DNA of 64,000 bases from a virus (Duplodnaviria > Heunggongvirae > Uroviricota > Caudoviricetes > Thumleimavirales > Hafunaviridae): IMG/VR virus record IMGVR_UViG_2974793440_000001, positions 12,822 to 76,821 of that record, one strand, 5' to 3'. Shown in pieces: positions 22,165-64,000 of the stretch. The notes under the pieces are model-generated. The model was not told the origin of the DNA, ran no database searches, and saw only the letters and a list, made by a program, of their open reading frames with translations. Numbering within the stretch: the stretch's first letter is position 1; each line of letters begins with the position of its first letter. The position numbers and the translations under genes were made by a program.

Positions 22165-22388
22165 ATAAAGAGTCACGCACCGGGGGTTTATAAAACGGGG
22201 GTTGGTAGGGGGTTCTTCATTTCCCAATATGAGTTATGGATAGAAAGTGGTACACGCACGGCATCCGGGGCTATACCCCCTGTTTATTTATAAGCAGAGT
22301 TGGTAGTAGAGTGTAGAGAAGCACGCCAAGTGGTGTGAACCCGGCAAGGAGTGCCGGAAGCTTAGCCACTCCCCGCCGGAGGCGAGCG

Positions 22389-22435
22389 CGTCCTTGGTAA
22401 GGACGAGAGCGCGGGTTCAAATCCCGCCTCAGGCT
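22389..22435 (+). other. attP-like site: 3' portion (anticodon arm to 3' end) of a tRNA-Thr(GGU) gene, no 5' half
   Basis: Anticodon arm CGTCC-TTGGTAA-GGACG, T arm GCGGG-TTCAAAT-CCCGC, acceptor 3' strand CTCAGGC; no matching 5' acceptor or D arm upstream; lies immediately 5' of the integrase gene. Confidence 0.6.
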
Positions 22436-43117: not shown

Positions 43118-43199
43118 TTGTTGAACTTAGGTTTCTCTGGTTCTGGTTTTCAGTCGGTTCAGCACGAGCTACGACATTGGATTCTCGCCGTAGCAAAAG

Positions 43200-43272
43200 C
43201 GCCGAGGACAGGACTCGAACCTGTGGCTACCTGATTAACAGTCAGGCGCTCTACCAACTGAGCTACCTCGGC
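43200..43272 (-). tRNA. tRNA-Asn (anticodon GUU)
   Basis: Minus-strand sequence GCCGAGGTAGCTCAGTTGGTAGAGCGCCTGACTGTTAATCAGGTAGCCACAGGTTCGAGTCCTGTCCTCGGCG folds as a cloverleaf; anticodon loop CTGTTAA; no encoded CCA; canonical promoter element at 43300-43338 upstream. Confidence 0.8.
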
Positions 43273-53729: not shown

Positions 53730-54149
53730 TTCTTAGAAGGTTCTGGTCAGCTCGTCACAGCCGGGGCGACCAACTCCCGACGACGCCCCACGGTGGGGCG
53801 TTTCGCCGTTACTCCTGCCACCAACGACGCTCGATGTTGATTATCTCCGATACATCCCGTCGCGGAGCAGACTTTCCACGACGCCGCCAGCAAGCCTTCC
53901 GCCGTAGGGAGTAGAAATACTCGTAGTCGGCTTGCTCTATCTTCTCTATGTCTTCTCCTTCCATACTACCGTAAGTGACACCGCAAGTTGTTCGTCAGTA
54001 GTTACTTCGAGGGGACAGCTCGCCGCCGAGTCCCGCTGGCTCCGCCCTCGGAACCGGGCACTTCGTCGGTTCGAGCGTCATTTGGTCAACCCCGTGTTTC
54101 GAGAGAGGTTCACCACACCGACTACACCGCTCGTCTTCTCGGGACATTA

Positions 54150-60870: not shown

Positions 60871-61749
60871 TTACTCGGAGTTTTCGAGCAACTGCTGAAG
60901 GAGCGCGTCCTTCTCGCGCTGGCTCATCTCACTCACGTCGGGAACCTCCGGCTCGGGAAGCTCGACGTGTTCCTCGTAGTCCTCGTAGTTGATACTAACC
61001 TCATTCTCCACGATGAACTGAAGGAACGTCTCACCGAGGTTGTTCCCGATACCCTTCACTTCCGTAGGGTCGAAAAGGTCGTCGGGGAGGTCGAGGCCGG
61101 TGTCACTCTCGCCGTCGCTACCGCTACCGTCGTTGTTCTTATCGCTCGTTTCCGCCGTCTCATCGACTTCGATTTCTCCGAAGTAGTCACTCAGGAGGGT
61201 TTCGAGACGGGCCACGGCTTCCTCGTAAGTCGGGACGCTCCCGACCTCGAAGCCATCCGCCGCCTCTTGGCGACCCTCACTTGCCACTACCGGAACCACA
61301 GGCTCCCCGTCGCTGTTGATGGGAACCATCACGGTGTCGCTTGCCTCGATGATGTCTTGCGAGAGCAGTAGCTCACGCTGGAACTCATCGACCTCCGCAA
61401 GCGGCTTCACATCAATCGAGTCGTACTTGCCGCTAAACTGATTGTATTCAGAAGCGGTGTAATCGGTGGCCTTCCAGAAGGCACGACCGATAGAGCCGTC
61501 GCTATCGTTAGCGTCGGTCGGCTCGACGATGTTCACCTCACGGGGCGCTTCACACCACTTAGCGATTTCACTCTCGCCACCCTTCTTCACAGAATCCTCT
61601 CCGAACGCCTTACGAACCTCGTGAGCGAGGCTCATCACGGAGTGGTCATCCTTCTGAAGAATGTCGTAGAGGTCGCTAACAGGGTTAGCGCCGAGGGTGT
61701 TCACCGTGTTCTCAACGAAGTCGCCGTTGCTGTTGACTTTGACAGACAT
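60871..61749 (-). CDS. hypothetical very acidic protein; first gene next to the 2.2-kb non-coding region
   Basis: 292 aa. Confidence 0.4.
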   Translation of the reverse strand: MSVKVNSNGDFVENTVNTLGANPVSDLYDILQKDDHSVMSLAHEVRKAFGEDSVKKGGESEIAKWCEAPREVNIVEPTDANDSDGSIGRAFWKATDYTASEYNQFSGKYDSIDVKPLAEVDEFQRELLLSQDIIEASDTVMVPINSDGEPVVPVVASEGRQEAADGFEVGSVPTYEEAVARLETLLSDYFGEIEVDETAETSDKNNDGSGSDGESDTGLDLPDDLFDPTEVKGIGNNLGETFLQFIVENEVSINYEDYEEHVELPEPEVPDVSEMSQREKDALLQQLLENSE

Positions 61750-64000
61750 AGTTCGTTGGGTGTCACTTACGGCTTATTGGGTCAGGGAAGCCGCGAGAAA
61801 ACCTGAATCCGGCTTGAGAAGTCACTAAGTGACTCACTCAAGACCGTTGGGGTTGCTTAGCACGGGGCTTAGCCCCGTAAAGACCCTTAATGGGTACACC
61901 TTTCGGTGGAACCTTTCTTACCTATCCTTTCCCCCGGTTTACACCGGGGCCGGACATACTAACGACCGTTTTAAACGTGACACACATCCCTCAAAGCCGG
62001 TTGCTATACGCTACGCTATGTGAACTGCTCACTATGCGGAGCTTCAAACCTCAAAGAGTCTTTCGCGTTAATCGCTACTTTGAGCTGTTGCTCGGTGGAC
62101 TAATACGTTCGTCTCTCGCGCCTAATCTGTGGCATAGGTTATTCGTTCCATAGGCTAAGCTACTGCCTATTTTAAGTTGTAACCGGGGCGAGATTCACAT
62201 TTCAGTACCCTGTTGGTACTGTATGGCAAGCTATGAGCATTAATGCTCTTAGCGCCGGTTTTCGTCACTCTTTGCCCTAAGGGTCGGTCTTTGTCCGGGC
62301 CAAACTACCCCGTATCACCTGAAATACACACCGGAGCGTATGCTTTCCACCGTGGTAGGTTTCCAGCTACCCCGCCCGCTTAGCGGGCCGGGCCGTTCCG
62401 GGTTCGGGCCGTCACTACGAACGGGGGCGAGTTACCCCGTCCCGTCCGTTCGGGCCGTACCTACGACGTACCTCCGGGCGGGCCGTTCGGGGCCGGGCTT
62501 TGCTTACTCAACAGGGAACCCGGTGGCCCACCTTTGGCGTTTCGGGGCTAATCCGTCCCGTTCCGACTCACAAGAGCCTTTCCGGGCCGTTTCGCCCCAC
62601 GTTCCTACCCCCGTCCGACCGTTTCGGACGGGTTCCGTTCCCCCGTACTGGGTACGGGCTATGTGTCTTTAAATCAGGTAGCCACACCGGATACCCCCGT
62701 TGGGGCGACGTAAACACCGACTTACCTAACCGTCCCGTCTCTCGGGGTACTGGGGCGTCAATTCGCCGGGTTCCCCGCTAATCGCACAACTTTACCAACA
62801 GGTGTGTGTCGGGCCTACATTCCGTATCGGGTTCCGTTTCGGCCCGTGGTTCCGTCCGTCCGTCGTACCCCGACCGGGGCCGTTTCGTCCGAACCTACCC
62901 ACGGGCCTACTAACCCGCCCCCGACCGTTCGGGGGGAACGTGGTAGTAGTTCCGTCGTAGGGTGGTAGCGTACTGGGGAAACCTCGGAGGGATACGCATT
63001 TGGCGACGTACCCCGCATTTAACGGGTTTCCCGTCTTTGTCCCGGCCCCCGGAGGGGGGCCGTCTTTTTGCGTCCGGGCCACCGGGGGGCCACCGGAGGG
63101 ACGGACGCTTAGCGTCCGAACCCCGGAGGGTTCCCCCGACCGTGGGGCCGGGAACGTTCCGACCGTCCGGGCCACCGTAGGCCCGTCCGACCGGGGCGAA
63201 CTATCCCGGCCCGCTCCGAGAGGGGCCGGGGCCGCTTTCGTCAAGCGACATTCTACCCAAATGGGGGTAAGTATATAAAGGTTGTGTAAGATAAACCGAG
63301 CAGTCCTATTAATCCGTCGAACCCGGAGGGTACAAGCCCCGAGACGGACGGATAGGTGCGACACAAGACGGGAGTATATCATAAAACAGAGAGATATATA
63401 CAGTAAGAGTATATAAAGGATAAAAATTTGAAAGTGGCAAGCGCGGAGGGTACAAGCCTCGATGCGGTAAAACACGGGTAAAATAATCCCACGACAAACA
63501 CCCACATAGTCAGACACACACCGAATTAACAAAACACCTGTAAGTGGTGATACCGGGGGATACGGCCCCCGAGACGGACGGATAGGGGTAGCGCGGGCGA
63601 GACGGGACGAGACGGAACCCCGACGTACCCCGCGCGGGACGGACGAGAGACGGACGGACGGACGAGAGACGGCCCGTACTTGCCAAATGCGCCGTTTTCA
63701 GGTGGCCCGAGAGTCGGGATAACGGCCCGTATGGACGGTGTGAGACGGCCCAGTACGGCCCGCGCGGGGGGCGAGAGACGGATATACGGCCCAGTACGAC
63801 CGGAGCGACCGGAGCGACCGGGACGGGACGGGACGGGACGGGCCACCGGAGCGACACACCGACCGACCGACCGGGTACGCGCCCCGCGCCCGCGTAGGCA
63901 CAGCGATAACGTACATATCCGGGGGTACAAGCCCGAGCGAGGGGGCGAGGGGGCCACCCGGTTAGAACATTAAGGTGCTTTCCGCAGGCGCATATTTAGT
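61750..64000. repeat. 2.2-kb ORF-free, repeat-dense region; candidate replication origin or genome terminus/packaging region
   Basis: No credible ORF on either strand; dense short direct repeats (GGGCCG, CCGTTCGGG, GGGACGGGACGGGACGGG, GACCGGAGCGACCGGAGCGACC, GACGGACGGACGG); four or more copies of a roughly 30-bp unit CCGGAGGGTACAAGCCCCGAGACGGACGGATAGG separated by AT-rich stretches of about 80 bp. Confidence 0.6.

Follow-up and report, generated by a model that had tools for sequence, protein, structure and literature searches.

What does the last 2.2 kb of the Haloarcula virus HJTV-2 genome encode? An earlier reading of the sequence (here, the original prediction) saw in this repeat-dense stretch no plausible gene and proposed a replication origin or a genome terminus. 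The DNA analysed, a stretch of 64,000 nucleotides called the window below, is nt 12822-76821 of the HJTV-2 record MZ334513.1, a linear genome of 76,821 bp in the family Hafunaviridae, genus Haloferacalesvirus. The stretch in question, window positions 61750-64000, had been located correctly; its 2,251 bp match the final 2,251 bp of the record at 100% identity, and the region is therefore the right genome end. It is probably a composite of three elements: a direct terminal repeat, a control zone of 430 bp, and a structured RNA of 1.5 kb encoded on the minus strand. All coordinates are window positions unless another record is named.

Conserved pairing in 61750-63249

The case for an RNA comes from the CDS-free (lacking coding sequence) genome end, which was aligned for 20 genomes. 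Overall identity of the RNA region to HJTV-2 is ~62%, though the capsid protein is ~95% identical across the genus. Pairing is nevertheless kept through differing sequences. One hairpin reads ACGGGGC-TTA-GCCCCGT, GTCGGTC-TTA-GACCGAC or GAGGGTC-TTA-GACCCTC, depending on the lineage, and a second reads CCGGAAAGCCGCTTTCCGG, CCGTGGGGCCGCCCCACGG or CCGAAACACCGTGTTTCGG.

Covariation was counted formally on a minus-strand alignment of 14 sequences (13 distinct rows, ~8 lineages including a metagenome contig), using the RNAalifold consensus structure of 381 pairs and, as controls, slid pairing partners and 500 shuffled alignments. Standard pairs are formed in 94.9% of cells, compared with 35-46% for slid partners and 88.7% for shuffles. 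Compensatory double changes are seen in 115 of the 381 pairs (25-32 slid, 51 shuffled), and the covariation score is 0.206 (0.04-0.065 slid, 0.102 shuffled). None of the 500 shuffles reached any of the observed values. Because MAFFT misplaces the first ~200 nt of the HJTV-2 clade, which has a 115-nt insertion, the 5' domain was analysed on the other 12 sequences. There, the first 215 nt contain 66 pairs that are 99% paired, and 17 show double changes as opposed to 1-5 after sliding; an example is CCCGGCCC/GGGCCGGG vs CCGCCCCGG/CCGGGGCGG vs ATACCCGG/CCGGGTAT. The same method applied to the gp136 coding region of the same genomes gave double changes in 9 of 254 pairs, an imperfect control since this gene is more conserved (89% identity). 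Folding of the single sequence gives z values of -4.25 for the 5' half and -9.89 for the 3' half, compared with -2.54 for a coding control. Within the HJTV-2 clade, the RNA core (compared over 61890-62672) has no substitutions at all, even relative to HSTV-4.

Together, these comparisons show that the minus strand of 61750-63249 encodes a predicted large RNA with a multi-domain secondary structure that is conserved across the genus Haloferacalesvirus. As a separate observation, nearly all of the 5.5% difference within the HJTV-2 clade lies in the terminal zone 63290-64000, a mosaic pattern with fast sequence turnover at this genome end.

Architecture of the fold

The predicted RNA, or leader, is 1,500 nt long in HJTV-2 (63249 down to 61750; nt 74571-76070 of the genome record) and 1,360-1,419 nt in other members of the genus, corresponding to nt 551-1969 in HF2. 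Its 5' domain (62988-63249) consists of hairpins that begin with the first predicted transcribed bases. The central domain (62460-62961) is closed by helix 5, which joins 62953-62961 to 62460-62468, segments 502 nt apart; all of its 9 pairs are maintained (100% paired) and 4 covary. Nested inside is another long-range element, helix 7 (62927-62940 with 62636-62648), which spans 305 nt and has 12 pairs, 7 of them covarying, at 97% paired. In helices 29 and 30, 9 of 14 pairs covary, and a short domain surrounds the invariant AAGUACGGCCCGAACGG. The most conserved part is the 3' core domain, 61950-62298, with 70-91% identity to distant relatives and invariant blocks of 20-35 nt that include ACAAAGAGCGACCCUUAGGGCAAAGAGUGACGAAAA and UAGCGAUUAACGCGAAAGACUCUUUGAG. 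This core is closed by helices 40 and 41 (62285-62298 with 61950-61968; 14 pairs, 4 covarying, 100% paired). It is followed by a 3' hairpin series, 61750-61949, in which helices 60, 65 and 68 have 5, 4 and 4 covarying pairs, respectively. Extra hairpin clusters at ~62347-62395 and ~63055-63170 are present only in the HJTV-2 clade and behave like expansion segments.

The four small hairpins picked out by the original prediction, among them GGGGC-TTA-GCCCC and CCCCGG...CCGGGG of the 3' series, all turn out to be conserved helices (65, 60, 46 and 45, with 4, 5, 2 and 1 covarying pairs). Of the short direct repeats that it saw in the GC-rich part, CCGTTCGGG has 3 copies in the region and 5 across the window, where 1.7 are expected, a weak enrichment. 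Words of this kind make better sense as stems and junctions of the RNA than as iterons.

Two further pairings deserve mention. The C-rich CGUUCCCCCCGAAC (62927-62940) can pair either with the adjacent GGUCGGGGG (62918-62926) or with GUACGGGGGAACG, 300 nt downstream (62636-62648). In diverged lineages, changes in the C-rich segment are matched by changes in both partners. This dual pairing may represent two coaxial half-helices or an alternative-pairing switch. At the other end of the RNA, the 19 nt directly before the gp136 ATG, AAGUGACACCCAACGAACU (61750-61768), are invariant in 14 of 14 sequences, as part of an invariant stretch of 19-25 nt. They are able to form 10 pairs with the invariant GGUGUGUAUUU (62322-62332, minus strand), 575 nt upstream; this is helix 36, in which there is no variation and hence no covariation support. 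Pairing of AAGUGACACCCAACGAACU with GGUGUGUAUUU could gate translation of the first early gene.

Which strand carries the fold

Several asymmetries assign the fold to the minus strand, which is also the sense of the downstream early genes. Of 96 tetraloop instances on the minus strand, 33 are GNRA loops; among 108 on the plus strand there are none. The alifold energy is lower on the minus strand (-797 vs -750), with more G-U cells (389 vs 219). In the minus-strand structure, 40.7% of unpaired positions are A and 67.5% of paired positions are G+C, and A-rich unpaired together with G+C-rich paired positions are typical of large structured RNAs. The predicted promoter and initiator (see below) are likewise oriented for minus-strand transcription, and the plus strand contains a T5 run at 63065. 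A fold formed by single-stranded DNA, or by an antisense RNA from the plus strand, is thus very unlikely. What can be said for that idea is that Watson-Crick covariation is strand-symmetric, that the G-U asymmetry is modest in helices predicted on both strands (96 vs 74), and that HF2 makes long antisense transcripts, of which R52 reaches nt 1855-1868. Because the G-U asymmetry is weak, the assignment to the minus strand rests mainly on the loops, the composition and the orientation of the promoter.

Predicted promoter, ends and transcription

Terminase, portal and capsid genes are at the left end of the HJTV-2 record. The genes of the right arm are small, acidic and of early type; they lie on the minus strand, and the last of them, gp136, is at 60871-61749 and adjoins the RNA. 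The HF1 and HF2 records were deposited in the opposite orientation, so the right end of HJTV-2 is the left, immediate-early end of HF2, in which nt 0-5 kb has been designated the immediate-early region (PMC7230728).

A predicted promoter, P1, occupies 63245-63279 on the minus strand. It consists of a TATA box, TTTATATA (63279-63272; ATATAAA on the plus strand), a 22-nt spacer, and the initiator AATGTCGC. In every lineage the TATA box, the exact 22-nt spacing and AATGTCGC are conserved, while the spacer sequence itself differs. Mapped HF2 promoters have a TATA box at about -26 and start with a purine (PMC8707807). Since P1 has the same geometry, the start is predicted at G 63249, which corresponds to HF2 nt 551 and is the base at which the first hairpin starts. 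The TATA box at 63272-63279 would thus direct host RNA polymerase to begin at ~63249, 22 nt further downstream.

At the 3' end, covarying hairpins extend to ~20 nt before the gp136 ATG. There is no U5 run anywhere in the RNA sense, and the interval between the structure and the gp136 ATG contains neither an oligo-U terminator nor a good TATA box or clear separate promoter; by our reading of the alignment, a weak AATAAG/AAAGTA box lies 24-29 nt before the ATG. Because no terminator or clear second promoter precedes gp136, the structured RNA would form the 5' portion of the earliest early-gene transcript, continuous with gp136. It may be cut off the transcript afterwards.

Published HF2 data touch this stretch at its edge. 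By reverse transcription PCR (RT-PCR), Russ et al. detected sense RNA that extends from nt 1855-1868, a site 115 nt before the first CDS, into the CDS itself; this was the upstream limit of their probing (PMC8707807). They also found that left-end HF2 transcripts could not be assigned to any intergenic-repeat (IR) promoter (PMC8707807), and the predicted promoter at HF2 nt ~522-529 could explain them.

No promoter would lie closer to the early-gene end of the genome than P1, and the structured RNA would be the first RNA made in infection. If entry is like that of T7, the early-gene end would enter the cell first. We suggest, speculatively, that the RNA itself is the active product, serving as a folded scaffold or a decoy that is needed at the very start of infection. 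One analogy behind this idea is the position of the anti-restriction protein Ocr, the first product of T7; the other is with the ornate RNAs of phages.

Annotated coding sequences

GenBank lists four 'hypothetical' CDS in the region (gp137, an unnumbered CDS, gp139 and gp140), at 61890-62153 (+), 62243-62383 (+), 62340-62672 (+) and 62792-63532 (-). That these encode four small proteins is hardly credible. Open reading frames (ORFs) of 46-246 codons are indeed present in HJTV-2 and its 98%-identical relatives. The predicted products, however, have isoelectric points of 9.8-11.7 with 2-4% Asp+Glu, whereas those of the neighbouring real genes are 4-6.6 (one at 9.8) with 14-32% Asp+Glu. In diverged relatives the four ORFs have lost their start codons and contain 1-16 indels of lengths other than multiples of three and 1-10 in-frame stops, and gp140 is frameshifted even between isolates of 98% identity. 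None of the four products matches a Pfam or PHROG family, whereas each of the four adjacent real genes matches a PHROG; those of the genes that adjoin the region are PHROGs of unknown function. In addition, curated or independently annotated records (HF2, Serpecor1, VOLN27B, HSTV-4 and others) leave the homologous 1.7-2.2 kb without any CDS. The composition of the products, the lost starts, the frameshifts and stops, and the lack of family matches thus lead us to reject the four CDS as proteins. The original prediction that the region lacks a plausible gene was correct, and conserved translated ORFs, which it named as a refuting finding, are not seen: neither reading frame nor start codon nor host-typical composition is conserved in relatives.

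The annotation of several genomes is affected. GenBank MZ334512-MZ334516 each place four spurious CDS across the RNA and the promoter region and leave the terminal repeat unannotated; at least 20 spurious CDS in these five records (HJTV-2, HRTV-15, HRTV-24, HJTV-3 and HSTV-3) merit removal, and the terminal repeat merits annotation. In HRTV-5, -8, -10, -13, -16, -19 and -20, HJTV-1, and HCTV-7 and -8, the annotation of the first early gene includes 57 nt too many, an over-extension that enters the 3' hairpins of the RNA. The shorter form is supported by a protein match and by the curated HF2 start.

The probable control zone, 63250-63681

This zone was described from an alignment of 13 lineages. 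The 12-mer AGTATATAAAGG occurs twice, at 63270-63281, where it overlies the P1 TATA box, and at 63408-63419, where it forms a second TATA-like box that is conserved in all relatives. The second conserved box, AGTATATAAAG, is 26 bp from the first in most viruses and 138 bp away in HJTV-2 because a unit of ~120 bp is duplicated. Three 34-nt direct repeats (63323-63356, 63443-63476 and 63553-63586; + strand) recur at a spacing of 110-120 bp next to the AT-rich TATA-like boxes, and two of them carry GGGTACAAGCC. The middle copy alone is conserved genus-wide, as the strongly conserved block GGGTACAAGCCTCGATGCGGTAAAACACGG. GGGTACAAGCC occurs 3 times against 0.07 expected, always in the last 700 bp and once inside the terminal repeat. 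From 63587 to 63675 (+ strand) the zone contains purine-rich repeats of the GAGACGG/GGACGG and GGGAC/GAGAC types, whose length differs in every lineage. The tandem tracts and iterated units that the original prediction reported for the terminal part were recovered by TRF and a direct-repeat search; the tracts found by TRF are (GGAC)7, CGACCGGAG x2.8, CGGGA x4.8 and ACCG x4.

With its two conserved TATA boxes, 63250-63681 is, as inferred from the alignment, a promoter zone. The AT-rich iterated part, 63250-63680, may also hold an origin or packaging signal. When up to 3 mismatches are allowed, a mini-ORB consensus matches the window 4 times, where 5.8 matches are expected, and none of the 4 lies in 61750-64000. 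From 63290 to 64000 there is little covariation and there are many indels, with double changes in 14-16 of 97 pairs compared with 4-10 after sliding.

The terminal repeat, 63682-64000

Positions 63682-64000 are identical to nt 1-319 of MZ334513.1, and the identity ends at the next base. The region is therefore the right copy of a 319-bp direct terminal repeat. For these last 319 bp alone, the proposal of a genome terminus was right, and the suggested check for a duplication at the other genome end found exactly this segment. Terminal repeats of 306-320 bp have been described in relatives (306 bp in HF1 and HF2, 320 bp in Serpecor1; PMC7230728). All 19 complete relatives end in ...GGTTAGAACATT..TTTAGT. 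A GTACTT hexamer at 63676-63681 (+ strand) forms the inner border and directly abuts the right repeat copy; its reverse complement, AAGTAC, directly abuts the left copy, so that the unique sequence is bracketed by both hexamers. In the HF2 record the same hexamer, at 305-310, is annotated as a 'putative nick site in genome replication'. The HJTV-2 repeat is thus a straightforward homologue of that of HF1/HF2, with the same conserved end and GTACTT/AAGTAC inner borders, and differs just in length and in internal microsatellites.

A metagenome contig, L033, enters the repeat from the RNA region and, after one copy of it, continues in left-end sequence. Such a single-copy junction is as expected for a concatemer or circle junction. 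Experimental concatemer data are for HF2 only (cited in PMC7230728).

Within the right repeat, G-rich microsatellites and a conserved GGGTACAAGCC box (63923-63933) precede the conserved end. The whole 64-kb window contains just three G-quadruplex-type motifs (four G3 runs), all in the region: 62385-62408, 62476-62497 and 63820-63837 (+ strand). The last, inside the terminal repeat, is (GGGAC)n.

An RNA with its own function, a leader, or an origin

We consider it an even call that haloferacalesviruses, including HF1 and HF2, encode a so far unrecognised class of giant (1.4-1.5 kb), ornate RNA that is their first early product and has its own biochemical function; speculatively, it might build a scaffold or cage, serve as a decoy that draws off a host defence factor or RNA-binding factor, or be a ribozyme. 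The main rival is a purely cis-acting 5' leader, whose fold would protect the long untranslated 5' stretch from nucleases or termination factors, or would gate gp136 translation. This is possible, and we rate it clearly lower. Its attractions are the continuity of the HF2 RNA into the first CDS in RT-PCR, the lack of an oligo-U run or clear TATA box before the gp136 ATG, a U content of just 17%, and the invariant pre-ATG sequence with its potential partner in helix 36. However, an architecture of 1.4-1.5 kb with multiple domains, long-range covarying helices and invariant junction blocks far exceeds the needs of known leaders, and the weak AATAAG/AAAGTA box could give gp136 a leaderless transcript of its own. 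That the whole 2.2 kb works at the level of DNA, its iterons, unwinding elements and hairpins serving as an origin of replication and/or in packaging, is more doubtful still. The terminal repeat and the nick hexamer are real, 63250-63680 does alternate AT-rich boxes with 34-nt repeats, the GGGTACAAGCC boxes are confined to the genome end, and T7-like phages place origins beside promoters. Yet duplex DNA function cannot account for the compensatory changes in helices that join segments 300-500 nt apart. Long-range compensatory pairing, as seen in this alignment, is a property of single-stranded RNA and not of a duplex DNA origin. The GNRA loops are strand-specific, and the mini-ORB consensus finds no ORB-like box. 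For 61750-63249, then, the proposed origin of iterons and unwinding elements is not supported, as the hairpins and repeats there belong to one fold. In 63290-64000 covariation is low and indels are frequent, so an origin could occupy this smaller part at most, and the origin hypothesis could survive solely for the 430-bp zone beside the terminal repeat.

Several points weigh against an independently acting RNA as the centre of a composite region. The alignment holds only ~8 independent lineages from one genus and one metagenome contig, and some long-range helices of the global fold (36 and 47, for example) are invariant and hence unsupported. The G-U asymmetry is weak, as described above. Start site and promoter are predictions, and the body of the RNA is inferred from sequence. 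Continuity with gp136 and the lack of a terminator fit a purely cis-acting leader equally well, and the scaffold or decoy function is speculative. Finally, the stretch may already have been described in older HF2 papers (Tang 2002, Nuttall 1995).

Distribution and comparison with known systems

At gathering score, no Rfam 15 family (including GOLLD, ROOL, OLE, group I and II introns, RNase P, SRP and rRNA) matches the region, and none matches the nine relatives searched. With E values up to 10, the region yields only five chance-level matches (E = 1-7.2; 13-24 bits, far below the gathering scores). Public collections were scanned with five conserved RNA or junction patterns. By these sequence scans the element is found only in 41 Haloferacalesvirus records and one contig from the ENA metagenomes, L033, the one true relative in the metagenome scan. 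The IMG/VR scan returned known isolates only, four bacterial loci in the genome-collection scan were chance matches, and 29 extra loci were likewise rejected as chance matches since they have no nhmmer match to the family profile. Among other Hafunaviridae, the ends of HRTV-27 and HRTV-25 are filled with dense small ORFs.

The sister genus Mincapvirus has a gene-poor stretch of 2-3.3 kb at the same genome end in HRTV-7 (nt 65681-69048), HSTV-2 and HCTV-6. It is purine-rich in the early-gene sense and contains many GNRA-type hairpins. By nhmmer it has no homology to the Haloferacalesvirus RNA, and the three genomes, at 96-98% identity, are too alike for covariation. This end may encode a second, analogous large RNA.

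Conserved non-coding features listed in the surveyed papers on these viruses comprise tRNA-like elements and a hammerhead ribozyme only. Papers on HF2, Serpecor1, VOLN27B and the Liu 2021 collection, together with reviews, assign no RNA or function to the stretch; an older mention may exist in Tang 2002, Tang 2004 or Nuttall 1995. The RNA class is thus apparently new and undescribed. In kind it is closest to GOLLD and ROOL, and in layout to the left end of T7, while it is a member of neither. Large structured non-coding RNAs (ncRNAs) are rare, and with every new class (RNase P, group II introns, OLE, GOLLD, ROOL) novel biochemistry has come to light. To our knowledge, no large structured ncRNA is known from archaeal viruses. 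If the present reading is true, this would be the first such class from an archaeal virus and among the largest outside rRNA and group II introns: a fold of 1.4-1.5 kb in every member of a well-sampled genus that includes the model haloviruses HF1 and HF2, at a privileged genome position, and mis-annotated as proteins or left blank in GenBank.

Like GOLLD and ROOL (and also OLE), the HJTV-2 RNA is a very large, multi-domain ncRNA of a tailed virus with GC-rich stems and A-rich loops, recognised through covariation. It differs in having no sequence or structure match to them (Rfam cmscan), in being about twice as long (1.4-1.5 kb vs roughly 0.6-0.8 kb), in its archaeal host, and in its location, which is at a genome end and immediately before the first early gene instead of close to tRNAs.

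An analogy with T7 has been drawn for HF2 in the literature (PMC8707807). HJTV-2 shares with the T7 left end a direct terminal repeat, several hundred gene-free bp, a host-type promoter ~550-750 bp from the end, an early operon directed inwards, and nick sites at the repeat borders that serve concatemer processing. In T7 the terminal repeat is followed by a non-coding leader with the host-polymerase promoters A1-A3, and then by the first early gene. Gene 0.3 of T7, however, is preceded by less than 1 kb, and a large conserved RNA fold is lacking, whereas in HJTV-2 ~1.5 kb of structured RNA separates the promoter from the first gene. The pRNA of phi29 is another structured ncRNA encoded beside a genome terminus, and it is transcribed from an early promoter. 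In contrast to HJTV-2, which has a terminase and a terminal repeat, phi29-type phages are protein-primed; the pRNA is ~174 nt long and shows no similarity. Transcription-primed origins, such as that of ColE1 with its RNA II or the T7 primary origin, resemble HJTV-2 in their long, folded, purine-rich transcript and in having a promoter beside a possible origin zone. This comparison, an analogy, would reconcile the origin idea with the RNA fold. The pervasive intramolecular pairing argues that the HJTV-2 RNA folds on itself.

Other RNA elements of the window

A type II hammerhead ribozyme is present at 53742-53808 (-; Rfam RF02276, 45.4 bits vs a gathering score of 37), an element already reported for HF1-group viruses (PMC7230728, PMC3088659). 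A weak tRNA-like match at 22353-22435 (+; 37.2 bits), where ARAGORN makes no call, is probably the partial tRNA that serves as attP in this virus group. A good tRNA-Asn (GTT) is found at 43199-43272 (-).

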